Source: Patescibacteria group bacterium (GTDB taxonomy: Bacteria; Patescibacteriota; Patescibacteriia; SG8-24; DYFX01). Taken from it: a stretch of DNA of 64,000 nucleotides. The notes under the pieces are model-generated. The model was not told the DNA's origin and ran no database searches. It was given only the letters and a program-made list of their open reading frames with translations. Location of the stretch: positions 966,657-1,030,656 of the forward strand of contig CP129476.1 of assembly GCA_030583805.1 (NCBI GenBank), in the 5' to 3' direction. Shown here piece by piece: positions 1,789 through 28,651 of the stretch. Made by a program: the position numbers and the translations under genes. The number at the start of each line of letters is the position of its first letter. Within the stretch, counting starts at the first letter, position 1.

Positions 1789-2505
1789 ATGAACCGCCGA
1801 GGGGTCGCATCGACCGGGTTGCTGCTCGTCAGCGGGCTTGCGCTTGCGCTGGCCCTGCTCTTCCTGTGGCGGGTTTGGGGATATTACCGCATGCTTTCGT
1901 CCGGCGGTCCGGTCGATTTGCCGCAGTACGCGAGCCAGTTCACCTTGACGGGCAGGACGGGCGAGGTTCCCAAGGGAGCCTTCGCGGACGTCGCGACATC
2001 GGATGATCCGTCGATCGGTCCTATTGATGCGAAACTCACGATTGTCGAATTCGTCGACTACGAGTGTCCGTTCTGCAACATCGAGTCGTCCGTCGTGCGC
2101 GAGCTGGCCGCCAAATATCAGGACAAGGTGCGCTGGATCATCCGCGATTTCCCCGTTCCAGAACTCCATCCCCAAGCCGTGACTGCGGCGGAAGCTGCCG
2201 GCTGCGCCGAAGCGCAGGACAAGTATTGGCCGATGCATGACCGCCTGTACGCAGCGGCGTTCAACAACGAGCTGACGCGCGAAGAGATCGATCGCGCCGC
2301 CGAGCAATCCGGACTCGACATGGCCGTCTATCGCGCCTGCATGAACCTGCACGCCCGTCTCACCGAGATTCAAGACGACGCGGCGGCGGGCCTCGCGGCC
2401 GGCGTGCGCGGCACCCCGACGTTCTTCGTGAATGGCAGCCGCGTCGAAGGCGCCATTCCCAAAGATGCATTCGAAACGATTATCCGCCGCTATGTCACTC
2501 CGTAA
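1789..2505 (+). CDS. DsbA-like thiol:disulfide oxidoreductase (thioredoxin fold, CPFC active site), membrane anchored
   Basis: LTIVEFVDYECPFCNIES...GTPTFFVNG is the classic DsbA motif pair. The start is chosen at ATG 1789 (MNRRGVASTGLLLVSGLALALALLF signal anchor); the track ORF from 1303 overlaps secG antisense. Confidence 0.8.
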   Translation: MNRRGVASTGLLLVSGLALALALLFLWRVWGYYRMLSSGGPVDLPQYASQFTLTGRTGEVPKGAFADVATSDDPSIGPIDAKLTIVEFVDYECPFCNIESSVVRELAAKYQDKVRWIIRDFPVPELHPQAVTAAEAAGCAEAQDKYWPMHDRLYAAAFNNELTREEIDRAAEQSGLDMAVYRACMNLHARLTEIQDDAAAGLAAGVRGTPTFFVNGSRVEGAIPKDAFETIIRRYVTP

Positions 2506-3898
2506 AAACGTTTTTGCCATCGCGCTCGCCGCATCGTGTCTTTTCGGCATCGGAACCGCCTCCGCGCAGACGCCCGAGCCGTTCGTGCCCGAGCCGATCA
2601 AGACGGAAATCGCCATTCCGATCGCCGAGCGCGTCGAGGGGTATACGGGTAATACGGTGACCGATCTCGCCAACTACATCGGCGTCATTTACCAGTTCAT
2701 GATCTCGATCATCGGCGTGGTGGCGGCTGTCATGATGATCATCGGCGGATTTCAGTACCTCACGTCGGCTGGCGACGCCGGAAAAATCGGAGCGGCGCGG
2801 AAACGCATTACGGACGCCTTGATCGGTTTGGTGCTGGCGTTCTCCGCCTACCTGCTGCTCAACACCATCAATCCGGCGCTTCTGAGTTTTGAACCAATCG
2901 GGAATCGATTGAGCCCCGTGAGAACCATCACGGCTTCCTTGCCGTTCTGCGAACAGATGGCAAAAACGTTAAAATTGGATCTATCCCAGATTACGCAGGC
3001 AAAAATGCAAGCCTTTCCGCAAGGTTGCAACTCTTGCGGTTGCGCCGGTTACTTGCAGCAGCCGTCGCTCGATACGTCCGGCAGGCCGAAACTTGATGGG
3101 AATGGGCAGCCGATAAACTCTCGCATCTGGTGCATTTTCCGTGGAGATAGAGCGACACCGAAGGAGAGGGGTGGCGGTGTAATCAATAGTGGCTGTGGAG
3201 AAGAAAAAATATGGACGGCCGAGGCCGAATTTTTCGGTGACGGAGGAAATAATGAGTTCCAGCCCAGTGTCTGTGTGCCCACGGTGCGCTATGGGGCAGA
3301 GGATCTTGAAAAAGCGTTTGTCGAGACCGGCATGACTCCGCATAGGAACGAGCTTGGCCGATGCCAGGCGTGCGCCACTTTCGGTCCCGGCGCCCGCATC
3401 CGCCTTGGGTATGTGGACAGCGCGCAGGCGTGTCAGGCATGGATGAACGTTGCGAACAACGGCAACGCCCAAGATAACCGCTTTACGGTCGGTAACAAAT
3501 CCGAGACAAACTTTGTATTGGATACGAGTCGGCCGAGCCAAATGTACTATTGCGGCTACAGTAGCGATCGTAATAATTGCGTCTACGGCAATGTGCGCTG
3601 CGAAACGCACGTCAATTCCTGCGATGACTACGACAGCGAGTACATCACCTTCTGCGACCAGCCTGATAGCCGCGGCGGCCTGCTTTGTAAGGACGAGGAG
3701 TTGCAAAGCTTTACGGGCGGCAGTTACGGCGCGCACCTCGGACCGATCTGTCAGACCAATCCTTGCGGCGTCGGCGGCGGCTGCGGCCAGTCCGGCATCA
3801 TTGAAGCCCTGAACGGCTTCGGGAGCAGTGGCGGCTTTACGAGTACGGTTTTCCGCGGCTCCACGTTCGGTTTGTGGGATCCTTCAGCATGCGATTAA
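2492..3898 (+). CDS. secreted protein: N-terminal T4SS-pilin-like (TrbC/VirB2-like, PF18895-type) domain fused to a ~300-aa cysteine-rich C-terminal extension
   Basis: Signal peptide MSLRKNVFAIALAASCLFGIGTASAQ. Hydrophobic pilin-like core IIGGFQYLTSAGDAGKIGAARKRITDALIGLVLAFSAYLLLNTINPALL. The C-terminal half carries ~22 Cys (CNSCGCAGY, CQACATFGPG, CETHVNSCDDYD, CQTNPCGVGGGCGQSG). The start overlaps the DsbA stop by 14 nt. Confidence 0.55.
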   Translation: MSLRKNVFAIALAASCLFGIGTASAQTPEPFVPEPIKTEIAIPIAERVEGYTGNTVTDLANYIGVIYQFMISIIGVVAAVMMIIGGFQYLTSAGDAGKIGAARKRITDALIGLVLAFSAYLLLNTINPALLSFEPIGNRLSPVRTITASLPFCEQMAKTLKLDLSQITQAKMQAFPQGCNSCGCAGYLQQPSLDTSGRPKLDGNGQPINSRIWCIFRGDRATPKERGGGVINSGCGEEKIWTAEAEFFGDGGNNEFQPSVCVPTVRYGAEDLEKAFVETGMTPHRNELGRCQACATFGPGARIRLGYVDSAQACQAWMNVANNGNAQDNRFTVGNKSETNFVLDTSRPSQMYYCGYSSDRNNCVYGNVRCETHVNSCDDYDSEYITFCDQPDSRGGLLCKDEELQSFTGGSYGAHLGPICQTNPCGVGGGCGQSGIIEALNGFGSSGGFTSTVFRGSTFGLWDPSACD

Positions 3899-3972: not shown

Positions 3973-6795
3973 ATGGCTGGCAAAAAAATCTCCAAAGCTG
4001 GCGGAAAACACGGAGCACCGGATGTGATTCGCGTGCGTGGCGCGCGGGCGCACAACCTGAAGAACGTCTCCGTCGATATTCCGAAAAACGCGCTCGTTGT
4101 CGTGACTGGTCTTTCCGGTTCCGGCAAGTCGAGTCTTGCCTTTGACACGATCTATGCCGAAGGCCAGCGCCGCTACATGGAGAGCCTGTCGTCCTACGCC
4201 CGCCAGTTCCTGGAACTCCAGGACAAGCCGGACGTCGACGAGATTTCCGGCCTGAGTCCGACCATCGCGATCGACCAGAAAACGGTTTCTTCGAATCCGC
4301 GCTCGACAGTCGGCACCATCACTGAAATTTACGACTTTTTCCGTTTGCTGTTCGCGCGCGTCGGCAAGGCGCATTGCCCGAACTGCGGAAAGCCCGTCGC
4401 GGAACAAACGCCCCGCCAGATCGTCGATCGCATCAACGCGCTCGCCAAGGATCAGGGGCTTTTGATGCTCGCGCCGATCGTGAAGGAAGAAAAAGGCGAA
4501 CAGAAAAAAGCGATCGAAGCGATGTTCCGCGCGGGCTACCGCGAGGCGCGCGTCGACGGATCGCTGTACGCCATCGAGGAGCTCACCAAGCAGCGTCTCG
4601 ACCGCGACAAGCGCCACACGATCGAAGCAGTCATCGCCCGCATCCAGGAAAAAAATCCGGCTTACGACGAAAAGCAGATGCTCGCGCTCGTCGGCAAGGC
4701 GCTTGAAATGGGCGACGGTTTCCTGACGCTCCATTTGCAGAAAAAAGACGAAGACCTGCTGATGTCGCGCCGTTTGGCTTGCGCCGACTGCGGCATCTCG
4801 CTGCCGGAAATCGAGCCGCGCATTTTCTCGTTCAACAGCCCGCACGGCGCTTGCCCCGGCTGCACCGGCCTCGGCGTGAAGCTGACGGCGGAGCCTGGAC
4901 TTGTCATTCCGAACGATAAGCTGACGCTCGCGCAGGGCGCCATCAAGCCCTGGACGCGCATCGCCGGCAGCGGCACCGGCATGATGAAAGAGCTCCAAAT
5001 GCTCGCCGACCGCATGAAATTCTCGCTCGACGTGCCGGTGTCCGAGCTGCCGAAGAAGGCGCTCGAAGCCGTGCTCTACGGCGACGCGGAATTCCAAGGC
5101 GTCATTCCGCATCTCGAGAAAAAGCATCTCGAGACGGATTCGGAGTACATGCGCAAGGAGATCGAAGAATACATGCGCACGGTGACCTGCCCGGTCTGCA
5201 AAGGCCAGCGCCTCCGCAAGGAAGCGCTGGGCGTGAAAGTTACCGGCAAGAACATTTCGGAGTTCGTCAGCATGTCGATCGAGGAACTCGGCGACACGTT
5301 CAAAAAAATCGACCTGCCGCCTTTCGATCGGAAAATCGCCGACCAAATCGTGAAGGAGGTTTCCTCGCGTCTCTTCCATCTTCTGGAAGTCGGCTTGGGC
5401 TACCTGACGCTCGACCGCTCGGTTACGACGCTCTCGGGCGGCGAAGGCCAGCGCGTCCGTCTCGCCACCCAGCTCGGCACCTCGCTTTCCGGCGTCATTT
5501 ACATCCTGGACGAGCCTTCGATCGGCCTCCACCCGCGCGACAACGACAAGTTGATCGAAGCTATCAAGTCGATCCGCGACGTCGGCAACTCGGTAATCGT
5601 CGTCGAGCACGACGAGGCGATGATCGAAGCGGCCGACTACGTCTTCGACATGGGTCCTGGCGCCGGCGAATTCGGCGGCGAAGTGACCGCCGAAGGCACG
5701 CCTTCCGACATCAAGAAAAACAAGAACTCGCTGACGGGACAGTATCTCTCCGGCAAGCAGCAAATCGTGGCGCCCAAAGAGTCGCGCAAGGGCAGCGGCA
5801 AGTCGATCCAAATCATCGGCGCGACCGCGTTCAATTTGAAGAACGTCGACGTGAAGATTCCGCTCGGCAAGCTCGTTTCCGTCACCGGCGTTTCCGGTTC
5901 CGGCAAGTCGACGCTCGTGATCGATATTCTCGCGACCGCTCTCGCGAAGAAGTTTTATCGCGCGAAAGAAGAGCCCGGCGCGCACAAGGCGATCAAGGGC
6001 ATCGAGCACATCGACAAGATCATCACGATCGACCAGTCGCCGATCGGCCGCACGCCGCGCTCGAACCCGGCGACCTACACCGGCGTCTTCACGGCCATCC
6101 GCGATCTCTTCACCGAAGTGCCGGAAGCCAAGATGAAGGGTTATGACGCAGGCAAGTTCTCCTTCAACGTGAAGGGCGGCGGCCGCTGCGAGACCTGCGC
6201 CGGCGAAGGCTACCAGCGCATCGAGATGCAGTTCCTGCCCGACGTTTTCGTCGAGTGCCCGGAGTGCAAGGGCGCGCGCTACAACCACGAAGCGCTCGAG
6301 ATCCACATCAAGGACAAAACGATCGCCGACGTGCTCAACATGACGGTCGAGGAAGCGCGCCGCTTCTTCTCCGACGTTCCGGCCGTCTTCGACAAGCTCG
6401 ACGTGCTCCATGACGTGGGCCTCGGCTACCTGAAGCTCGGACAGCCCGCCACGAACCTCTCGGGCGGCGAAGCGCAGCGCGTGAAGCTCGCGACGGAATT
6501 GTCGCGGCGCGCGACCGGCAAAACGCTGTACATCCTCGACGAGCCGACGACCGGCCTCCACTTCGAAGACATCAAGCGCCTCCTCGGCGTCTTGGACCAG
6601 CTCGTCGAAAAGGGGAACACCGTCGTCACGATCGAACACAACCTCGACGTCATCAAGTGCTCCGACTGGGTGATCGACATGGGTCCCGAAGGCGGCGACA
6701 AGGGCGGCAAGCTCGTCGCCGAAGGCGCGCCGAAAGCCATCGTCAAAGCCAAAGCCTCGCTCACGGGGCGGTACTTGAAATCGGTCGTGAAATAA
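3973..6795 (+). CDS. uvrA: excinuclease ABC subunit A
   Basis: 940 aa with two ABC ATPase modules: Walker [15 protein letters not shown] and [11 protein letters not shown], signatures LSGGEGQR / LSGGEAQR. Zn-finger CPNCGK and CETCAGEGY...CPECKG. Confidence 0.95.
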
Positions 6796-14202: not shown

Positions 14203-14278
14203 GGGCCCGTAGCTCAATGGTTAGAGCACCGAGCTTATATCTCGGCGGTTGATGGTTCGAATCCATCCGGGCCTACCA
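14203..14278 (+). tRNA. tRNA-Ile, anticodon UAU (AUA-decoding)
   Basis: Manual cloverleaf: acceptor GGGCCCG / CGGGCCU (G1-U72), D-arm GCUC-AAUGGUUA-GAGC, anticodon stem CCGAG/CUCGG with loop C-U-UAU-A-U, T-arm GAUGG-UUCGAAU-CCAUC, discriminator A, CCA encoded. The acceptor/3' end GGCCUACCA resembles bacterial tRNA-Ile. Confidence 0.8.
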
Positions 14279-14287
14279 AAGTCCACC

Positions 14288-15100
14288 ATGGCTCTCCTAT
14301 CACAGGAAATATTGCAGACCGTTGTATCTATTGAGATACAGCGCGGTGATGAGACCACGACCATCGCCACTGGTTTTTTGTTCGTTAAAAAAATTGATGA
14401 TAATCAGATCTCCAAAAGAGGGCGAGTCTATTTGGTTACAGCGAAGCATGTGCTATTTAAAAACAATCAAATTAAATACAGAGAGATTCTTGTTCGGATG
14501 GATAAGAATGGATCAGGTGGCCAACTTTTCAGGGCGCCTCTACAGGATGAAAATGGAGCACTCTTTGCAATTCATCCAACAGCAGATGTTGCCGTGCTTT
14601 TATTAAGCGTGAAAGCGCTTCAAGATGGGGATCTCAAGTACAGGTGGTTCATTAATGATCGGGATACGGTATACAAAAAAACTTACGAAGAATTTGGAGT
14701 TTCTGTTGGTGATAGCGTCTTTGTTCTAGGTTTTCCAAGAGGTTTGCGAGGGGTGAGTGCTAATTACGCCATTTGTCGTCAAGGCATTATTGCAAGACTT
14801 GATCAAGAGTGTCTGAACGATGGTTATTTCTGGATAGATGCCCCTGTATTTCGAGGTAATAGCGGAGGTCCAGTAATTTTGCGTCCAGAAGGGTTTTCCA
14901 TAGAAGGTACCAAGGCAGTAGGTTCATCTTGCTTGCTTGGCCTAGTATCCATGTGGGTGAACGCGGATGATGAATCTGGTGAGACCGAAAATGATTTAAA
15001 AGGGCAGATGGGGTTAGGCAAAGTAGTCACTACCCAAGCCATTGAGCGTGCTATTGAAGAGCATGAAAAAATGTTAATCGCTCGAAAATCAAGCCAGTGA
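14288..15100 (+). CDS. trypsin-like (S1/Trypsin_2) serine protease, no signal peptide; low-GC (~43%) gene
   Basis: Catalytic triad context: TAKHVL (His), D in the middle block, GNSGGPV (Ser). GC is far below the ~64% of the flanks. Begins 10 nt after the tRNA-Ile 3' end. Confidence 0.75.
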   Translation: MALLSQEILQTVVSIEIQRGDETTTIATGFLFVKKIDDNQISKRGRVYLVTAKHVLFKNNQIKYREILVRMDKNGSGGQLFRAPLQDENGALFAIHPTADVAVLLLSVKALQDGDLKYRWFINDRDTVYKKTYEEFGVSVGDSVFVLGFPRGLRGVSANYAICRQGIIARLDQECLNDGYFWIDAPVFRGNSGGPVILRPEGFSIEGTKAVGSSCLLGLVSMWVNADDESGETENDLKGQMGLGKVVTTQAIERAIEEHEKMLIARKSSQ

Positions 15101-15160
15101 GCCCTCGGTTTGCAGATAGATAATTAGGTCGTGCTACCATCAACGCTTTGTTTCGCTGAG

Positions 15161-15225
15161 CCGAGCTTAGCTCGATAGCTAGAGTGCTGATCTGTAGCTC
15201 GACAGTTGATCGTTCGTATCCACCA
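15161..15225 (+). pseudogene. decayed tRNA-like remnant (pseudo-tRNA) related to the upstream tRNA-Ile
   Basis: Compare TTAGCTCGATAGCTAGAG...TTGATCGTTCGTATCCACC with the tRNA-Ile D-arm TAGCTCAATGGTTAGAG and T-arm TTGATGGTTCGAATCCATCC. The layout is preserved, but the anticodon, T and acceptor stems no longer pair. Confidence 0.35.
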
Positions 15226-15355
15226 AGATCTGCTGTCGTAAAATCCTGTTTACAGAGCGGATTTTCAGTCTGCAGACCCAGGCTTGACATTGTGATATTG
15301 CCCCTGTAAGTTTGCGCCGGCTCAAACAAACAATCCGAGCCAGAAAGAGTTACGC

Positions 15356-16927
15356 GTGAAAAAACGAACGCCCTGTCTGCTGATACTGACCGTGCTGTCG
15401 GCCTGCCAGTCGAGTCCCGACGAGGGATCCGAGCTGCCCGACGGCTACGTCCGCGCGACGCTTCCGGCGACCGAGAGCGGCATCGAGTATGCCCACCTCG
15501 ACACGCCGGAGATGCTGCCGGTCGGTCCCTCGGGGATCTTCTCGGTGAAGGACGGCTATGCTGTCGCGGACAACGTCCGCGGCTCCATCGTCATCCTGAA
15601 CGACGACTTCAAGGTCACGCGCGAGGTCAACGTCAAGAACGCCGCGCAGGGCATCCTGTCCGTCGCGTCCGACGGCGAGGATCTCGTGGCGCTCGACGGC
15701 TACGCGCTGACGCCCAAGCTCCTGCGGATCGGTCCGAACGGCGACATCAAGAGCAAGGACATCACGCTGAACTCCACCGCCGGACCGACAGGTCTGGTGA
15801 AGGACGACGTGGGCATGATCCTCGAGTACGGCGGCGGGGAGACCCTCTACCGGATCGATGATCTGGGCGCTTCGCTCGGGCTGGAGCCGATCGACCACTA
15901 CGTCTGGAACGGGATCGCGTACTCGGTGGACAAGCCGACCGAGACCTACTTCCACGAACGTACCGTGCGCATCGGAAGCCACGCCGGCGTCGTGCGCGTC
16001 CCCAATCACCTGGGCTCGGTGCAGCTCATCGGTTCGGATGGTGACGGCGGCGTCTACGCCCTCGTGGAGGACGTGACCCTCGCCCACACCATCTCGGTCG
16101 AGCAGTCTGTCTGGCACTTCTCATCGACCGGCGAAGCGCTGTCCGTGTCCAAGGTCCCGCTGCGAGAACGTCTCACGTACGTGACGCAAGGGGTCGCCCT
16201 GGACGAGGCTGGCGAACCGGTCGCGCTGGTTCCGCAGCGCGGCGATCTCCAGTTCTGGAGCCTGACGACGGTGAACGCTTCGGCGATCACCGCCCGGAAG
16301 CCGAGCAAGCTCCCTGGGGAGGTCGTGAACGATCTCGGCACCACGGCTCAGGGGCTGGTCACGTACAATGGAAGCTGCCTGACGTCGGCTCAGATCGCGA
16401 GCAACGCCAACGAGTACAAGAACGTCTCGCAACCCATGACGTCGAACAACGTCAACAACAACGGCAGCTGCACGTCGCGTACGAAGCCGAGCTACCTGAC
16501 CGTCGGGGTGAACAGCCCCGTGAGCTACGACTGGGGAGGCTGGGACACCCCCAGCGCATTCCAGTCCGCCATGAACGCGGGCGGCAAGGCCGGCAACGTC
16601 AACACCGCGGCCACGTTGACGTGTTCCTATGGCGCGGATTGCTCTGGCTTCGTCACGCGCGTCTGGGGCTGGTCCGACTTCAAACGATCGACGACCACCC
16701 TCGACGACGCCGTCAACTCGACGCCCGTCTACGGTCCAGGTTTCCTCACTGGCGAGATCTACAACCTCGCCGGTTCGCACACGGCCATCTACAATTCAAC
16801 GACCCCGAGTGGGCCGAACATCTGGGAAGCAGCCGGTGAGCCGTACGGCAGGGTCGTGTACAGAACCGCGTCATGGTCGTATGTCTCCGGGTATTCCACG
16901 TATCACGGCGTCACGCACTGCTGGTAG
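15356..16927 (+). CDS. secreted lipoprotein with C-terminal NlpC/P60-like (papain-fold Cys-His) putative peptidase domain
   Basis: Lipobox LTVLSAC. The C-terminal block ADCSGFVTRVWGW...GSHTAIY fits the NlpC/P60/CHAP-type catalytic Cys...His. The S/T/N-rich linker and N-terminal domain are unassigned. Confidence 0.5.
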   Translation: MKKRTPCLLILTVLSACQSSPDEGSELPDGYVRATLPATESGIEYAHLDTPEMLPVGPSGIFSVKDGYAVADNVRGSIVILNDDFKVTREVNVKNAAQGILSVASDGEDLVALDGYALTPKLLRIGPNGDIKSKDITLNSTAGPTGLVKDDVGMILEYGGGETLYRIDDLGASLGLEPIDHYVWNGIAYSVDKPTETYFHERTVRIGSHAGVVRVPNHLGSVQLIGSDGDGGVYALVEDVTLAHTISVEQSVWHFSSTGEALSVSKVPLRERLTYVTQGVALDEAGEPVALVPQRGDLQFWSLTTVNASAITARKPSKLPGEVVNDLGTTAQGLVTYNGSCLTSAQIASNANEYKNVSQPMTSNNVNNNGSCTSRTKPSYLTVGVNSPVSYDWGGWDTPSAFQSAMNAGGKAGNVNTAATLTCSYGADCSGFVTRVWGWSDFKRSTTTLDDAVNSTPVYGPGFLTGEIYNLAGSHTAIYNSTTPSGPNIWEAAGEPYGRVVYRTASWSYVSGYSTYHGVTHCW

Positions 16928-20773: not shown

Positions 20774-22126
20774 ATGAAAACCACGCACAGATTCGCCGTT
20801 GACGGCATGCATTGCCGCAGCTGCGAACTCACCATCGAGCGGAAACTCGGAAAGATTCCGGGCGTCTGCGGCGTCGATGCGAATACGCCAAAGGGCGAAG
20901 TGCACATCGAATGCGAGGGGCCGGCGCCCTCTCTCCAGGCACTGAATGCCGCGTTGAAAGGCGAAGCCTATACGCTTCGCTGCCACGGCACGCCCTCGAC
21001 TGAGAAAAAACCGAAATTCGGACAGATCTTCGGAGCCTTCGCCGTCGTCTTCTTGCTCGGCTGGTTCGCATCGAGGATCGGGCTCCTGAAAATGGATTTC
21101 GCGATCAACGGCGCCGCCGGGTTCTGGCCGATCTTCGCCATCGGTCTTCTTGCCGCCGCGTCCTCCTGCATCGCCGTCTCCGGCGGGCTCCTTCTCTCCT
21201 CGTCCGCAAACTACAATCGCCGCTACGGCTCCATGGACGGCGTCGCCCGCATGACGCCCGTCTTCATGTTCGTCGCAGGTCGCGTGCTCTCCTACGCGTT
21301 CTTCGGCGGCCTCATCGCCGTGATCGGAAAAATGCTTACGCCGTCGCCGTTCGTGACGGGCGGCATCATCGTTCTGGCTGCCGCCTACATGCTGATCATG
21401 GGTCTCGACATGCTGAAGATTGCGCCGCCGTGGCTCAAGACCATTCAGCCGCGCCTGCCCAAGTGGGTTGCGCGCCGCATCGTCGATGCCGAAGGCCGCG
21501 AACATCCGGCCATGCCGTTCGCCATGGGCGCGCTCACGTTCTTCATCCCGTGCGGATTCACGCAATCGCTCCAAGTGTACGCGCTGACCGTCGGGAGCTT
21601 CGCGCAGGGCGGTCTCATTCTTGCGGCCTTCGCGCTCGGCACTGCGCCGTCGCTCCTCGCGCTCGGCTGGGCTTCGACGTCGCTCAAAGGGACATCCGGC
21701 GAGAAGTTCTTCCGTTTCGCGGGCGCGCTCGTCGTCGTCCTCGGGCTCTGGAATCTTCAAAACGGCATGACCGCGATGGGCTACCCGCTCTCGATGCCGA
21801 CCTTCGCCGCCGCGGCTCCCGCAGCGCAAGCGCAGGATCCGAACGTGCAGGTCGTAAACGGCGTGCAGGTCATTCGGATGAAGCTGTCCGTCAATCCCGC
21901 ATACAAGCCGAGTGATCGGTATACGGTGAAGGCAGGGATGCCTGTGCGTCTCGAAGTCGCCGGCATCGGAACCGGTTGCCGCGGAGAATTGATCGTGCCG
22001 AAAGCTCGTGCCCGCGTCACGTTGAACAAGCAACTCAACGTTCTTGAATTCACTCCGAAAAAAGCCGGCGCGTACGCATTCAGCTGCGCGATGGGTATGT
22101 TCCCCGGCGTCATTAACGCCATCTGA
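20774..22126 (+). CDS. fusion protein: N-terminal HMA (heavy-metal-associated) domain + multi-TM permease-like core + C-terminal cupredoxin-like domain
   Basis: HMA motif VDGMHCRSCE. 6-8 predicted TM helices with a conserved FFIPCGFTQSLQ motif. The C-terminal ~120 aa (VQVIRMKLSVNPAY...GCRGELIVP...FSCAMGMFPG) resembles a small cupredoxin-fold metal-binding domain. Confidence 0.55.
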   Translation: MKTTHRFAVDGMHCRSCELTIERKLGKIPGVCGVDANTPKGEVHIECEGPAPSLQALNAALKGEAYTLRCHGTPSTEKKPKFGQIFGAFAVVFLLGWFASRIGLLKMDFAINGAAGFWPIFAIGLLAAASSCIAVSGGLLLSSSANYNRRYGSMDGVARMTPVFMFVAGRVLSYAFFGGLIAVIGKMLTPSPFVTGGIIVLAAAYMLIMGLDMLKIAPPWLKTIQPRLPKWVARRIVDAEGREHPAMPFAMGALTFFIPCGFTQSLQVYALTVGSFAQGGLILAAFALGTAPSLLALGWASTSLKGTSGEKFFRFAGALVVVLGLWNLQNGMTAMGYPLSMPTFAAAAPAAQAQDPNVQVVNGVQVIRMKLSVNPAYKPSDRYTVKAGMPVRLEVAGIGTGCRGELIVPKARARVTLNKQLNVLEFTPKKAGAYAFSCAMGMFPGVINAI

Positions 22127-22127
22127 T

Positions 22128-22340
22128 ATGAAAACCACCATCAAGATCGACGGTATGCATTGCGGTTCCTGCAAGGCCTTGATTGAAGACGTCGCAAAAG
22201 ACGTCCCCGGCGTCGTTTCGTGCGACGTCGACGTCGCGCACGGCAAAGCGGATGTCGAACACACGGCGGACTTCGAAGCTTCGGAATTCATCGCCGAGAT
22301 CGCGAATCTCGACGCGGGATATAAGGCGCATCTGGTATGA
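22128..22340 (+). CDS. copZ: CopZ-like copper chaperone (single HMA domain)
   Basis: 70 aa with [22 protein letters not shown]... (GMxCxxC). The start lies 2 nt after the upstream stop. Confidence 0.85.
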
Positions 22341-25012
22341 GCGACAACCTGAAAGACGATGAAGTCGTCGCGACGCCGAAAGAGGGCGCGAGTCGCGTCA
22401 GTTTTCGTGTGCACCAGGACGTTAGTGCCGAGGGCGTCGTGGTCGAAGGGTCCGACGGCACGCGGCGCTTCGAAGGAAAAGTCGACGTGCGCCGCCGCGG
22501 TGAGATCGACTACCCCGCGAGCGAAGAGAAGCCGGAGAGTCTCATCGCCTTGCTTCGCAAGGTCGTGAAGTTCGACGCCGTGCAAGAACCTTCCTTGCCG
22601 ACGCAGGCTGCAGCGTCCCCGACGCGGGCCGCAGCGTCCCCGACGGAGGCGCCGTCCGGAGATCGCCGCGCCCTGCTTTCGCTCGGCGGCATGCATTGCT
22701 CTTCTTGCGCCAACCTGATCGCGCGCGGACTTCGCAAAGTCAAAGGCGTCAAAGAGGCGAACGTGAACTTCGCCGCCGAAAAAGCGCGCGTCGTCTTCGA
22801 TCCGCGCCAGACCGACGAAGCGGCATTGGTTGAAGCCGTCAAAAAGGCGGGCTATCGGGCGGAACCCGCGTCCAAGGCCGATCCGGAAACGGATCGCGCC
22901 CGCCGCATCGCCGAGATGCGCTCCTACAAGCGCAAGTTCCTCGCCGGCATGATCTTGAGCTTGCCGATGCTCTACTTCATGTTGCTCGACTTCCTGGCCT
23001 TCATGCCCGGAAGAGCGTTCTTGTTCCCCCTTGTCGGCATCATCTCCTTCATCCTGGCCGCGCCCGTCCAAATCGTTCTCGGTGCGGGCTTCTACAAGGG
23101 CATGTGGTCCAGCTTGAGGATGAAGACCTTCAACATGGACTCGCTGATCGCGATCGGTACCACCACCGCCTTCATCTACAGCATCGCCAACTTCCTGATC
23201 TACGCGATCTCCAAGGGGTCGATCGTCGGCGTGGGAGGGGAGAAGATTCCGGAACTGTACTTCGAGACGTCCGCGTTCCTGATCACCTTCGTCCTGCTCG
23301 GCAAGTGGCTCGAGAGCAAGGCGAAAGGCGAGACGTCCGAAGCGGTCAAGAAATTGATGGGCCTGCAAGCCAAGACCGCGCGCGTGATGCGTGACGGTCG
23401 AGCGCTTGACGTACCGATTGAAGAGGTTGTGGTCGGCGACACGGTCGTCGTGCGTCCCGGCGAGAAGATTCCTGTCGACGGCGAGATCATCAAAGGCTCC
23501 TCGGCCGTGGACGAATCGATGCTGACGGGCGAGAGCCTCCCGGTCGAGAAAAAAGAAGGCGACTCCGTCATCGGCGCCACTATGAACAAGACGGGTAGTT
23601 TCGAATTCCGCACGACGAAAGTCGGCGCGGATACGGCGCTCTCGCAGATCGTGCAATTGATCGAAGACGCGCAAGGTTCGCGCGCGCCGATTCAGGGATT
23701 TGCCGACCGGATCTCGGCCTGGTTTGTCCCGGCCGTGATCGCGTTCGCCTTCCTGACCTTCGTCGTTTGGTACTTCGCGCTCGGCGCGTCGCTCAGCTTT
23801 GCGCTCATGGCCTTCACGGCCGTGATCGTCATCGCCTGTCCGTGCGCGCTCGGCTTGGCGACACCGACGGCCATCATGGTGGCGACCGGAAAAGGCGCCG
23901 AGCACGGCATCCTCGTCAAAGGCGGAGAGCCGCTTGAAGCGGCGTGCAAGGTCAAAGCCGTCGTCTTCGACAAGACGGGCACTTTGACGAAAGGTACTCC
24001 GGAAGTGACGGACGTGATCGGCATCGGCCTGACCGATGAAGCCCGCATTCTCGAAATTGCCGCCGGGCTCGAAGTGAAATCCGAGCACCCGTTGGCGGAA
24101 GCGATCTGCCGATACGCGGAAGAGGAGAACGTCGATCCGATCGACGTCACGGACTTCAAGGCGATTCCGGGCCACGGCGTCCAGGCGACGAGCAACGGCA
24201 CGGAATACTTCTTCGGGAATCGCCGGCTCGTGACGGATATCCTCGCGTTGGAAATCTCCGGCTTCGACCGGAAGATGCGGAAGCTGGAAGAAGCCGGAAA
24301 GACCGTCATGATCTTGGCGACGAAAACCGGCGTTGTCGGATTGATCGGCGTCGCCGACACGATCAAAGACACCTCGGCGCTCGCCGTGGCTGAACTGAAG
24401 AAGATGGGACTGGCGGTCTTCATGATCACGGGCGATAATGAACGCACGGCGCGCGCGATCGCGAAGCAGGCGGGCATCGAGAACGTGCTCGCGGAAGTCC
24501 TGCCGGAACACAAGGCTGATGAAGTCAAAAAGCTGCAAGCGACGGGCATCAAGGTGGCGATGGTCGGAGACGGCATCAACGACGCGCCGGCCTTGGCGCA
24601 GGCCGATCTCGGCATCGCCATGTCGAGCGGCACCGATGTCGCCATGGAAACGGGCGGCGTCGTGCTCATGAAAAACGACTTGAACGACGTCGTGACGGCC
24701 ATCAAGCTTTCGCGCGAGACACTCGGCAAGGTGCGGCAGAACCTGTTCTTCTCGCTCTTCTATAACGTCGCCGGCATTCCGATCGCCGCGCGCGTTTTCG
24801 CGGGCGTCGGCCTCGTGCTCAAGCCGGAGTTGGCCGGCCTCGCGATGGCGCTCTCCTCGGTATCCGTCGTGGCCAACTCGCTGCTTCTGCGCGGCTTCCG
24901 TCCCGACCGCCGCAACTGGCTCTCCTTGGCCGCACCGTTCGTCATGACCGCGTTGTTCCTGGCCGCCTTCATCGGATTCGCTCGCCTGAGCGGCGGAACG
25001 ATGGGTGCCTGA
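22337..25012 (+). CDS. copA: copper-translocating P1B-type ATPase (CPC type)
   Basis: N-terminal HMA ([12 protein letters not shown]), TM CPC motif [18 protein letters not shown] phosphorylation site, GDGINDAP hinge. Confidence 0.9.
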
Positions 25013-25084
25013 GGCGCCCGCCTGCACGTCATCTTCAGGATCATCGCGTTTGCGTGCGTCTGAGCTGATAGCACACGCGTTTGC

Positions 25085-25090
25085 TATACT
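25085..25090 (+). promoter_or_regulatory. extended -10 TGcTATACT, 7 nt upstream of the copB-like ATG
   Basis: GTTTGCTATACTTCCTCATATG. Implies a leaderless or very short-leader mRNA. Confidence 0.35.
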
Positions 25091-25097
25091 TCCTCAT

Positions 25098-27185
25098 ATG
25101 ACTTACGTCTGCCCGATGCATCCTGAAGTGACGCGCGACGTTCCCGGCCGGTGTCCCGAATGCGGAATGGAACTCGTGCCGATGAAAGAAAAGAAAGGCC
25201 ACGGCGCGTATGCGGCGCCAGGCAAGCATGAAGGCCACTCGACCGCGATGTTCGCCCGGAAGTTTTGGATCAGTTTCGCGCTGACAATCCCGGTCGTCCT
25301 GTATTCCGAGATCGTGCCGATGCTCTTCGGCTGGCGGCCGCCGTCCTTTTCCGGTTCGGCCTACGTGCCGGCGATTCTCGCCTCGATCGTCTTCTTCTAC
25401 GGCGGCCTGGTCTTCCTTGCCGGCGGCTTCAGGGAATTGCGCGGCCGGAAGCCCGGCATGATGACGCTGATCTCGCTGGCCGTCGTTGCAGCCTATGCCT
25501 TCAGCGTCTGGTCGACGCTCATTGGCGCCAAAGAAACCCTTTATTGGGAGCTGACGACGCTTATCACGGTGATGCTGCTCGGTCATTGGCTTGAGATGCG
25601 GGCCGTGAGCAGCACGAGCGGCGCTTTGAAGGAGTTGGCGAAACTTTTGCCGGACACGGTCGAAGTGCTGCGCGACGGTACGTCGACGAAAATTCCGCTC
25701 TCGGAGCTTCGCGAAGGCGACCGTTTCATCGTACGGCCGGGCGGCAAGATTGCCGCCGACGGCGACATCGAGGATGGCGAGTCTGAAGTGAACGAGGCGG
25801 CGGTTACCGGCGAGTCCCGGCCCGTCAAAAAAGGAGGGGGTGACTCGGTCATCGCCGGTACGATCAACGGCGACGGATCGTTGACCGTGCGCGTCAAGAA
25901 CATCGGCGAGAAAACCTTTTTGGCCGGCGTCATGCGGCTGGTTGCCGACGCCCAAGCTTCGAAATCGAAACTGCAGATTCTCTCCGACCGCGCAGCCATG
26001 GTGCTCACGTACATCGCGGTCGGCGCGGGCGCCGTCACTCTGGCCGTTTGGTGGTTTGCCGCGTCTCCCGTCTTCGCCGTCGAACGCATGGTGGCGGTGC
26101 TCGTGATCGCTTGCCCGCACGCGCTCGGCTTGGCCGTGCCGCTCGTCGCTTCGATCTCCACGATGATGGCGGCGCGGAACGGTTTCTTGGTGAAGCAGCG
26201 TCTCGCGCTTGAAGCCGCTCGCAACATCGATATCGTCCTGTTCGACAAAACCGGCACGCTGACGAAAGGGGAGTACGGCGTCGATCGCGTCTGGGGCTTC
26301 GGCCTTTCGGAAGACGACGTGTTGGCGCTGGCTGCAGCGGTCGACGCTTCGTCGGAACACGTCGTCGCCAAGGCGACGGTCGCGCGTGCCAGAGAAAAGG
26401 GCCTCGTTATCCCGGCGGTGGAAGCTTTCCAGCGGGTGCCCGGCAAGGGCGTGAAAGCGCGCGTCGGAGGCCGCGAGATTTCCATCGGCGGAGAAAATGC
26501 GCTTGCCCCGGGCGCGCGACAAGTAGCGTCGAAGGTCTGGGACGAAATCGCGGAAGAAAATGCCAAGGGCAAGACGGTCGTCTACGTGCTGGAGAACGAC
26601 GCCGTGCTCGGAGCGATCGCGCTTTCCGACGTCCTCCGCGAGGAATCACGCGAAGCGATCGCGCTGCTCAAGAAGATGAACGTCAAAGTCGGCATGGTCA
26701 CCGGCGATTCCGACGATGTCGCGGCCTGGGTCGCGGGGGAGCTCGGCATCGACGAAGTGTTTGCCCGCGTCCTTCCGGGCGACAAGGCGGGCAAGGTCAA
26801 GGGGCTTCAAGCCAAGGGGCTCAAGGTCGCGATGGTCGGAGACGGCATCAACGATGCGCCCGCGCTCACGCAAGCCGACCTGGGTATCGCGATCGGCGCC
26901 GGCACGAACGTCGCCGTCGAGTCGGCAGGCATTATTTTGGTAAAGAACGATCCGCGCGACATTCCCAAGATCGTGCACCTGTCCCGCCTGACCTACGCCA
27001 AGATGATCCAAAATCTTTTTTGGGCGACGGGCTACAACATCGTGGCGATGCCGCTTGCGGCCGGCGTCCTGGCGAGCCGCGGCATTATGCTTCAGCCGGC
27101 TGTGGCTGCCGTTTTCATGTCGCTCAGCACGGTGATCGTGGCGGTGAACGCCCTACTCTTGCGCGGAAAGAAGCTTTCGGCATGA
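25098..27185 (+). CDS. copB: P1B-type heavy-metal ATPase, CPH type (CopB-like), with N-terminal CxxC...CxxC metal-binding domain
   Basis: N-terminal YVCPMHPEV...GRCPECGMEL (HMBD-like). TM motif ACPHALGLAVP (CPH). [15 protein letters not shown]. Confidence 0.85.
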   Translation: MTYVCPMHPEVTRDVPGRCPECGMELVPMKEKKGHGAYAAPGKHEGHSTAMFARKFWISFALTIPVVLYSEIVPMLFGWRPPSFSGSAYVPAILASIVFFYGGLVFLAGGFRELRGRKPGMMTLISLAVVAAYAFSVWSTLIGAKETLYWELTTLITVMLLGHWLEMRAVSSTSGALKELAKLLPDTVEVLRDGTSTKIPLSELREGDRFIVRPGGKIAADGDIEDGESEVNEAAVTGESRPVKKGGGDSVIAGTINGDGSLTVRVKNIGEKTFLAGVMRLVADAQASKSKLQILSDRAAMVLTYIAVGAGAVTLAVWWFAASPVFAVERMVAVLVIACPHALGLAVPLVASISTMMAARNGFLVKQRLALEAARNIDIVLFDKTGTLTKGEYGVDRVWGFGLSEDDVLALAAAVDASSEHVVAKATVARAREKGLVIPAVEAFQRVPGKGVKARVGGREISIGGENALAPGARQVASKVWDEIAEENAKGKTVVYVLENDAVLGAIALSDVLREESREAIALLKKMNVKVGMVTGDSDDVAAWVAGELGIDEVFARVLPGDKAGKVKGLQAKGLKVAMVGDGINDAPALTQADLGIAIGAGTNVAVESAGIILVKNDPRDIPKIVHLSRLTYAKMIQNLFWATGYNIVAMPLAAGVLASRGIMLQPAVAAVFMSLSTVIVAVNALLLRGKKLSA

Positions 27186-27889: not shown

Positions 27890-28651
27890 ATGGATTCCAA
27901 CGAAAAGTTTTCGATGTCGCTCTCGGTCAAGCAAATCTTCCTCGCGGGCGTCGCCGCCGGCGTGCTCGGCGTGGCCGCTCTCGGTTTCCTCCTCATGGTG
28001 ACGAAGGGCGTCGATGCCAGCTCGTGGTTCTCGGGTTCCGCCCGCGCTCCGCTCGCGGTCGCTCCGTCCGCTGGCGTGCCGACGGCTCCGGCCGGCGGCG
28101 AACAGGTCGGCGAAGTCGCTCCGGTCACGAATGACGACCATATCCGCGGCGACAAGAACGCCGAGATCACGCTTCTCGAGTACTCCGACTTCGAATGCCC
28201 GTTCTGCTCGCGCTTCCACCCAACGCTCGTCCAGGCTTTGAACGAGTACAAGGGCAAGGTGCGCTGGGTCTATCGCCACTTCCCGTTGAACTCGATCCAC
28301 CCGAACGCGCAGAAGGCGGCCGAAGCCTCCGAGTGCGCCAACGAGCAGGGTAAGTTCTGGGAGATGGCCGACAAGATGTTCGAGAAGCAGGCCTCCGGCC
28401 TTACCGTCGCGCAGCTCTCCGGGCTCGCCAAGGAAGCCGGCGTGCGCGACATCGCGAAGTTCGACGCGTGCGTCTCGAGCGGCAAGTACGCAGCCCTCGT
28501 CGCCGCCGACCTCGCCAGCGGCGAAGCGGCCGGCGTGACCGGAACGCCGGGCACGATCGTGATCAGCAAGGACGGCACGAAGCAGCTCATCCCGGGCGCG
28601 CTTCCGTACGAGTCCGTCAAGCAGATTATCGACTCGATGCTCGCGTCCTAA
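27890..28651 (+). CDS. DsbA-like thiol:disulfide oxidoreductase (CPFC), membrane anchored
   Basis: TLLEYSDFECPFCSRFHP...GTPGTIVISKDG. Paralogue of the 1789-2505 gene. The alternative start MSLSVKQ is at 27914. Confidence 0.8.
   Translation: MDSNEKFSMSLSVKQIFLAGVAAGVLGVAALGFLLMVTKGVDASSWFSGSARAPLAVAPSAGVPTAPAGGEQVGEVAPVTNDDHIRGDKNAEITLLEYSDFECPFCSRFHPTLVQALNEYKGKVRWVYRHFPLNSIHPNAQKAAEASECANEQGKFWEMADKMFEKQASGLTVAQLSGLAKEAGVRDIAKFDACVSSGKYAALVAADLASGEAAGVTGTPGTIVISKDGTKQLIPGALPYESVKQIIDSMLAS

Follow-up and report, generated by a model that had tools for sequence, protein, structure and literature searches.

A DsbA-linked, extended type IV secretion pilin-like protein with a rare cysteine-rich domain in Patescibacteria

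Introduction

VirB4, the ATPase of type IV secretion systems (T4SSs), is encoded in 2,417 of 3,035 Patescibacteria assemblies, and VirB2-like pilins are found in 1,948 assemblies, 383 of which possess them in arrays of 2-11 genes (PMC12102498). In Candidatus (Ca.) Southlakia epibionticum the T4SS and six short pilins are essential (PMC10633639, PMC12857230). Although T4SS and pilin genes are thus required for epibiotic life in one tested Patescibacterium, reviewers term the role of the Patescibacterial T4SS 'completely unknown' (PMC11665869), and the literature on these systems refers just to a 'potential to elaborate conjugative pili', a pilus not having been demonstrated yet (PMC12857230). 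Here, we describe a pair of genes within a 64-kb stretch (the window) of the 1.17-Mb contig of a Patescibacteria group bacterium, in which a gene encoding a DsbA-type thiol:disulfide oxidoreductase overlaps one encoding a T4SS pilin-like protein that is extended by a large, cysteine-rich C-terminal domain.

The kind of protein that underlies this locus, a Patescibacterial T4SS pilin-like protein, is known. New here are two conserved cassettes that each join a DsbA to extended pilins, a swappable cargo slot behind the pilin hairpin, a junction motif (xINP) at the hairpin exit, and the rare Cys-rich domain itself. In the literature that we searched, no description was found of the DsbA pairing, the extended architecture or the Cys-rich domain. 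An original prediction, made from the DNA sequence of the window alone, had drawn attention to the locus, and the fate of its claims is reported with the results that bear on them.

Results

A dsbA gene overlaps the gene for an extended pilin-like protein

Positions 1789-3898 of the window contain two genes on the same strand, dsbA followed by the extended T4SS pilin-like gene (Table 1; all coordinates are positions in the window, and residue numbers refer to the 468-amino-acid (aa) form of the protein). The likely start of the pilin-like gene is an ATG at 2492 (MSLRK...), as judged from the conservation of N-termini across an alignment of homologues (A1). An independent 468-aa gene call from a Logan assembly (P0102) yields the identical protein with the same start. 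A protein that is 100% identical (P0001) bears the NCBI name 'MAG: pilin [Patescibacteria group bacterium]'; NCBI record WKZ28886.1 (437 aa) begins at a GTG 31 codons downstream (~2582), and the signal peptide is thereby lost. As originally predicted, the gene overlaps the stop of a membrane-anchored DsbA with a CPFC active site: the ATG at 2492 precedes the dsbA stop codon (TAA, 2503-2505) in a 14-nt overlap, and the identical overlap is present in the orthologous loci L003 and L005. Orthologues of the DsbA hold the same position in loci L001-L005. No terminator-like site was found between dsbA, the pilin gene and uvrA, which begins downstream at 3973, and the gene for SecG lies upstream of dsbA in divergent orientation.

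The DsbA has an N-terminal transmembrane (TM) helix, its CPFC active site at residues 93-96 (2065-2076), and a GTPTFF loop of the cis-Pro type. The Pfam matches and this reading of the sequence assign to it a thioredoxin fold, a CxxC motif and a location outside the cytoplasm, the attributes of a DsbA. It probably works as an oxidase, not as a reductase.

The N-terminal module of the second protein had been predicted to be pilin-like, and it belongs to the Pfam family PF18895 (T4SS_pilin), which it matches above the gathering cut-off (36.5 bits versus 26.6; E 5.2e-9) over profile positions 5-71 of 71. The protein also has the layout typical of PF18895, in which a cleavable leader precedes a pair of hydrophobic helices that a short basic loop connects. 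TM1 spans approximately residues 63-87 and TM2 approximately residues 109-126, and they enclose a basic loop at 88-108 (GGFQYLTSAGD...KIGAARKR; full hairpin loop sequence QYLTSAGDAGKIGAARKRITD) with four basic and two acidic residues. An AlphaFold2 (AF2) model places two long helices at 57-91 and 96-126. Residues N127-P128, right after TM2, are invariant. The hairpin also matches NCBIfam model NF045849, a 'pilin-like conjugal transfer protein' of Mycoplasma integrative and conjugative elements (ICEs), at E 5.5e-7 and 29 bits, under the cut-off of 40. A leader with n, h and c regions that ends in A-x-A-Q is found in most of the 27 homologues aligned. We also considered a type IV pilus pilin, and ruled it out: the leader is of the signal peptidase I type (TASA↓Q) and not of the class III type (G↓F-T-L-x-E), and two internal hydrophobic helices are present where a prepilin has a single N-terminal one.

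Elsewhere in the window, a pilin hidden Markov model (HMM) detected no second open reading frame (ORF) with a pilin domain and a VirB4 HMM detected no VirB4-like ORF, and the remaining ORFs scanned are housekeeping genes (Pfam scans of 40 ORFs), in agreement with the predicted lack of further T4SS or pilin genes in the window. With no VirB4-like ORF in the window, the gene does not have the VirB4, VirB6 or PrgI neighbors that mark a PF18895 gene of a T4SS locus.

DsbA-extended-pilin cassettes occupy two conserved loci and share a cargo slot

To place the gene pair in a wider setting, we fetched 86 PF18895 loci, a sample biased toward the relatives of the query, with flanks of up to 6 kb on each side of the pilin gene. 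An iterated DsbA HMM placed a DsbA gene, in the same orientation, directly before the pilin gene in 39 of the 41 loci designated L001-L041, and detected none within the fetched flanks of the other 45. VirB4 was detected (VirB4 HMM) within the flanks of 21 of these 45 loci. Across 85 loci, DsbA linkage and VirB4 linkage of pilin genes are mutually exclusive.

Two arrangements recur. Cassette A, represented by 23 loci, consists of SecG (-), DsbA (+), one or two extended pilins and UvrA (+). Cassette B, represented by 16 loci, consists of a beta-propeller gene, DsbA, one to four extended pilins and RadA. In every locus that reaches that far, the gene after the last pilin is UvrA in cassette A or RadA in cassette B. 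A Falkowbacteria locus (L040) combines a DsbA with a VanY/M15 domain and has the flank set of neither cassette. Both cassettes are associated with the genome under study. A second extended pilin, WKZ28964.1, is encoded on the contig of the window, its accession lying 78 numbers past WKZ28886.1, and on an independent Logan contig (L006, a cassette B locus) a protein identical to WKZ28964.1 is encoded 3 nt 3' of a second DsbA paralogue, which has a CPYC active site and 35-39% identity (BLASTP). The original prediction had proposed to ask whether homologues retain both the fusion and the adjacent DsbA; they do, and a second locus of the same genome does so as well.

Identity values set a constant hairpin against a variable C-terminal part. 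Within the family of homologues, mean pairwise identity is 68% in the hairpin and 28% in the C-terminal domain. When cassettes A and B of the same genome are compared, hairpin identity is 56% and the C-terminal domains are unrelated; wider comparisons, across cassettes and lineages, give a hairpin identity of 52-88%, again with unrelated C-terminal domains. In some lineages, the cassette A site holds a 40-48-Cys domain in place of the 20-Cys domain. Since the sister cassettes carry extracytoplasmic wall enzymes (Table 1), the position behind the hairpin represents an outside-facing cargo slot.

Table 1. Coordinates and loci of the features described in the text
Feature	Position or locus	Strand	Basis and remarks
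Membrane-anchored DsbA-type thiol:disulfide oxidoreductase, 238 aa	1789..2505	+	Pfam Thioredoxin_4 E 9e-25, DSBA E 7.4e-18
Extended T4SS-pilin-like gene	2492..3898	+	468 aa + stop; longest ORF from 2432 (2432..3898)
Sec-type signal peptide (MSLRK, hydrophobic core, TASA↓Q)	2492..2566	+	Read from sequence
Extracytoplasmic motif P-I-x-T-E-I-x-I-P	2588..2620	+	E39 and P43 invariant in alignment A1
PF18895 T4SS_pilin hairpin	2666..2869	+	Pfam match, residues 59-126
Junction motif T-I-N-P at TM2 exit	2864..2875	+	xINP hallmark of extended forms; alignment A3
C-terminal Cys-rich domain, 331 aa (residues 138-468), 20 Cys	2903..3895	+	Alignments A1, A2
Cassette B cargo: Peptidase_M23	L026		Pfam
Cassette B cargo: VanY/M15	L027, L033a, L041a		Pfam
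Cassette B cargo: GH73 Glucosaminidase	L033b, L036c		Pfam

Cassette B cargos that have no Pfam match include some with odd Cys counts (9, 11, 13 and 15). These cargos, of the P0047 and L034 types, occur in L006 (3256-4431), L018, L020-L023, L034 and L041, and contain motifs such as GAHAVIFMGW or HSFMYIGG, which suggests that they may be NlpC/P60-like cysteine peptidases with one free catalytic Cys. A motif between the cleavage site and TM1, (T/L)-E-I-x-I-P, is common to extended pilins of both cassettes (LEIPIP in the paralogue P0047) and may serve in processing or recognition.

Record titles of the DsbA-linked loci name the Patescibacteria group, Minisyncoccota, Ca. Paceibacter, Ca. Uhrbacteria and Ca. 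Falkowbacteria. Other cassette contigs (L008, L010, L011, L013, L014, L017, L028 and L029, among others) are titled 'uncultured Gammaproteobacteria', Vicinamibacterales or (Candidatus) Binatia, labels that look unreliable and wrong for the gene content.

The Cys-rich domain is a rare family found behind the hairpin

The original prediction counted about 22 Cys in a Cys-rich extension. The extension is indeed Cys-rich, with 20 Cys in the C-terminal 331 aa, and the count was slightly high, the whole protein having 21; two CxxC and one CxC motifs are present. Cys makes up 6.0% of the C-terminal domain, compared with a mean of 0.64% in ten housekeeping proteins of the window. Sixteen Cys are invariant across 27 full-length homologues (423-500 aa, 30-62% identity), which can be aligned over their whole length, and the number of Cys in the C-terminal domain is 16, 18 or 20 in 27 of 27, never an odd number. 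Strictly even counts are what full disulfide bonding of an extracytoplasmic domain predicts. These counts and the predicted topology fit the proposal, already made in the original prediction, of a disulfide-stabilised domain exposed outside the cell, and we infer that the C-terminal domain is extracytoplasmic and disulfide-bonded. Conservation in this domain is mostly of Cys, Gly and Pro; W180, H278 and Y243 (in a GYD motif) are the near-invariant residues other than Cys.

A structure prediction followed by a Foldseek search, the approach that the original prediction had recommended, gave a modelled fold and no relative. AF2, supplied with a C-terminal-only alignment, returned a mixed alpha/beta fold with a predicted local distance difference test score (pLDDT) of 79 and a predicted template modelling score (pTM) of 0.80. 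Foldseek found no match in the PDB, for the C-terminal and full models, or in BFVD; the best E-values, 0.06-0.33 at a TM-score of ~0.1, are meaningless, and weak rows for heparinase I were disregarded. Likewise, the domain has no match in Pfam, NCBIfam or PDB sequence profiles. When hhalign was used to compare it with other cargo types, namely 40-48-Cys domains, P0047-type domains, the Saccharibacterial types and the 160-aa type that occurs beside VirB4, no relation emerged (probabilities of at most 0.3%).

A profile search of 1.84 billion representatives recovered 54 proteins with the Cys-rich domain. In nearly all of the full-length ones it follows the hairpin directly, with its start at approximately residue 140-165, and the remaining cases are fragment-like. 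The fusion of pilin hairpin and Cys-rich domain is therefore real and obligate; with at least 27 full-length homologues, it is one gene free of any frameshift, as had been predicted. The Cys-rich domain is thus a rare family outside current Pfam-A.

Extended PF18895 proteins are common and, in some classes, belong to T4SS loci

The original prediction held that such pilins normally carry no large appended domain. This view did not survive the survey: of 159 distinct PF18895-like ORFs at the fetched loci, 84 have a C-terminal extension of at least 100 aa, and some of these adjoin VirB4. The initial homology search had likewise returned PF18895 proteins of 390-730 aa that align in the hairpin only. 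Some extended proteins contain additional recognizable domains (VanY, FGE-sulfatase and Big_5). The xINP junction is present in 64 of the 84 extended ORFs and in 1 of the 75 short ones (Fisher p 2.5e-25, uncorrected for phylogeny).

At Saccharibacterial loci, between two and four extended PF18895 proteins (350-850 aa) are encoded directly after a VirB4-like ATPase, and one of these loci (L038) was confirmed to have dnaA nearby. In Paceibacterota and other classes, extended forms of 250-308 aa lie near VirB4. Extended PF18895 forms are therefore T4SS-locus components in some classes, and the hairpin family, extended forms included, is tied to T4SS loci. The DsbA-coupled forms, among them the gene of the window, sit at housekeeping loci.

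The VirB4-adjacent extended pilins of 237-308 aa (L044, L046, L051, L052, L057, L058 and L063) share a C-terminal CHxxGTCVD...HLH motif. By eye it resembles LAS/M15 zinc peptidases, and a Pfam search gave no M15 match; these forms might correspond to the M15B-like SEML1_0007, encoded beside virB4 in Ca. S. epibionticum. In another setting (L059, L065, L073 and L082), PF18895 genes, short and long, form arrays directly 3' of genes for SBP_bac_1 solute-binding proteins and beside neither VirB4 nor DsbA, and several of their pilin-domain proteins have Cys-rich N-terminal extensions.

Other features of the window

A third membrane-anchored DsbA paralogue is encoded at 27890-28651 (+); it has a CPFC active site and is 31-36% identical to the other two. 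The genes just 5' of it (20774-22126, 22337-25012 and 25005-27185) encode a DsbD_2-HMA-cupredoxin fusion protein and a pair of heavy-metal P-type ATPases. From the third DsbA and this fusion protein it follows that the 1.17-Mb genome retains at least three DsbA genes and a DsbD-like reductant channel. A tRNA-Ile(TAT) gene borders the sole GC-poor stretch of the window (14203-16927; 52.7% versus ~61% GC), which contains an ORF for a trypsin-like peptidase (14249-15100) and a 523-aa ORF without a Pfam match (15356-16927), and which may be an integrated or foreign segment.

Discussion

We propose, with moderate confidence, that dsbA and the extended pilin gene are translationally coupled, and that their products yield a DsbA-folded head, exposed at the surface or binding a host envelope, on a T4SS-pilin carrier. 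In this model the Sec pathway would export the pilin-like protein and its signal peptide would be cut after TASA. The two helices would insert as a VirB2-like hairpin with the basic loop (K98, R103, K104 and R105) in the cytoplasm, so that the short segment ahead of the hairpin and the 331-aa domain after it both lie outside. As this C-terminal domain emerges, the co-made, membrane-anchored DsbA would introduce about ten disulfides into it. The hairpin would then act as a conserved carrier or anchor that displays interchangeable exo-domains at the cell surface, and the lineage-specific Cys-rich domain would be a rigid binding head, serving adhesion or receptor recognition, directed toward a host or a cell envelope. 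Export, hairpin topology and DsbA-made disulfides are suggested by what the sequence and topology rules indicate, by the conservation of the operon and by Cys counts that are always even; a role at the surface or in host interaction is suggested by analogy with the sister cargos and by the lifestyle of the phylum.

Several observations weigh against this proposal. No T4SS gene was found in the 64-kb window, and VirB4 was absent from the fetched flanks of all 40 DsbA-linked loci (VirB4 HMM). Of the two pilin families for which the original prediction had suggested an HMM search, PF18895 was matched and TrbC (PF04956) was not, with no match at E <= 1. When a 55-sequence hairpin profile (A3) was compared by hhalign with a VirB2/TrbC alignment built from annotated plasmids (A4), the similarity was weak (probability 31%, E 5e-4, 64 colinear columns), and PDB sequence-profile and Foldseek searches returned no pilin. 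Homology of the hairpin to true VirB2 is plausible but weak; independent support for its plausibility comes from SEML1_0018 and SEML1_0019, short Saccharibacterial pilins that match both PF18895 and PF04956 (Wang et al. 2023 supplement, PMC10633639). Inherited synteny could account for part of the DsbA linkage, since related genomes have the same housekeeping genes around the cassette, although the existence of a second, independent cassette speaks against this. Finally, the binding-head role, while the most probable one, is suggested by missing catalytic signatures and by analogy, and no positive match points to it.

Two alternatives concern the hairpin. It might polymerise into a VirB2-type T4SS pilus, in which all, a minority or the tip subunits display the Cys-rich domain as an adhesin, in line with the pilus-like scaffold of the original prediction. 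Such a pilus would be in keeping with membership of PF18895, with a hairpin identity that suggests constraint beyond plain anchoring, with the extended PF18895 genes that adjoin VirB4 in several classes, and with the essential short arrays at the T4SS locus of Ca. S. epibionticum (PMC10633639, PMC12857230); moreover, the frequency of VirB4 in the phylum (2,417 of 3,035 assemblies; PMC12102498) makes it probable that a T4SS is encoded elsewhere in the genome. We nevertheless regard a decorated filament as unlikely. The literature shows no pilus for these systems as yet, the DsbA cassettes are never linked to VirB4 in the fetched flanks, and the xINP junction marks extended forms and not short pilins, which suggests a separate functional class. 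Wall hydrolases like those of the sister cassettes would be better placed close to the wall than out on a filament, and, by our own reckoning, a helical filament of the VirB2 type would be hard put to accommodate a 36-kDa head on each subunit for steric reasons. The lack of nearby T4SS genes, the absence of VirB4 from DsbA-linked loci and the wall hydrolases of the sister cassettes thus argue for a carrier hairpin with variable exo-domains over a filament. The same lack of T4SS genes near any DsbA-linked locus (fetched flanks), together with the housekeeping neighbors SecG, UvrA and RadA and the weak similarity to VirB2, would also suit a plain two-helix anchor unconnected to T4SSs, one half of an envelope-maintenance module of a DsbA and a membrane-tethered exoprotein. 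This we consider quite unlikely, as generic anchors are not usually 52-88% identical while the domains attached to them are exchanged, the same hairpin family, xINP-extended forms included, lies directly beside VirB4 in at least 21 loci, and the match to the Mycoplasma ICE pilin-like conjugal transfer protein, albeit below threshold, is specific.

Two further alternatives concern the C-terminal domain. With the same architecture and dependence on DsbA, it could be a novel enzyme that acts on the cell envelope of the bacterium itself or of its host, degrading the wall in a VirB1-like or effector-like manner. The M23, M15/VanY and GH73 domains in the equivalent slot of cassette B would favor this, as would the essential hydrolases beside virB4 in Ca. 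S. epibionticum (PMC12102498; PMC10633639 supplement) and the near-invariant W180, H278 and Y243 (GYD). Yet searches of Pfam, NCBIfam and the PDB gave the domain no match, and its profile resembles that of no other C-terminal group of extended pilins. Conservation in the domain falls mainly on Cys, Gly and Pro, a pattern typical of scaffolds and not of active sites, and its Cys counts are always even whereas those of the putative Cys-peptidase-type paralogues are odd; an enzyme accordingly strikes us as rather improbable. That two genes, one for a small pilin and one Cys-rich, were merged by a frameshift or an assembly error is next to impossible: this candidate is ruled out by 27 full-length homologues of the same architecture from different assemblies, by the identical protein in an independent Logan assembly, and by the occurrence of the domain almost only directly behind the hairpin, apart from fragment-like exceptions.

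A more far-reaching form of the carrier proposal, which we put forward as doubtful, is that the PF18895-xINP hairpin loads interchangeable, DsbA-folded exo-domains, both wall hydrolases and Cys-rich binders, onto an essential T4SS or pilus, forming a polymorphic toolkit for recognizing and breaching the host envelope, in which the Cys-rich domain would be a host-receptor-binding head with a new fold. The pilin hairpin is routinely extended by outside-facing cargo domains, and in one sub-lineage the extended forms have DsbA partners of their own at two loci that are conserved. The swapping of cargo between wall hydrolases and Cys-rich domains offers concrete candidates for host contact and wall breaching, and the module is a testable lead on how small-genome Patescibacteria contact their hosts.

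Comparison with known systems

The VirB1-like hydrolases of monoderm T4SSs, including SEML1_0006 and SEML1_0007 beside virB4, have counterparts in the M15, M23 and GH73 domains carried by the sister cassettes; they differ from the protein of the window, which matches no hydrolase family in its C-terminal part. Polymorphic toxin and effector systems combine a conserved N-terminal trafficking domain with a variable C-terminal domain. Here, too, the N-terminal module is conserved and C-terminal domains, some of them peptidoglycan hydrolases, are exchanged at a fixed locus. The trafficking domain of those toxins is soluble, unlike the membrane hairpin described here, and no toxin domain was recognised in the protein of the window. 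Membership of this group was rejected since UvrA or RadA follows the pilin genes in place of an immunity gene, and we retain the resemblance as an analogy.

Extended VirB6 proteins and adhesins of the VirB5/CagL type are alike in concept, a T4SS module presenting a large hydrophilic domain for contact with a target (PMC12857230). Their carrier modules are different, VirB6 being polytopic and VirB5 soluble; they have no relation to the present protein in sequence or fold, and no pairing with a DsbA is described for them. Agrobacterium VirB2 and the TrbC pilins (PF04956) have the same overall layout of leader, two hydrophobic helices and short basic loop, and hhalign aligns the helices colinearly, albeit with weak similarity. 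They belong to a family that the protein of the window does not match, and VirB2 proteins have no C-terminal domain (alignment A4).

Among the closest described systems are the VirB2-like pilins of Patescibacteria, such as SEML1_0014-0019 of Ca. Southlakia epibionticum and the arrays reported by Quinonero-Coronel et al. 2025 (PMC12102498), which come from the same phylum and the same hairpin family. They share with the present protein a signal peptide, two hydrophobic helices, the GGFQYLT(S/A)(A/G)G motif and a basic loop. Whereas these pilins are ~100-170 aa long, lack a Cys-rich tail, the xINP junction and a DsbA partner, and are arrayed at T4SS loci, the protein described here is 468 aa long, is encoded at a housekeeping locus and is coupled to a DsbA.

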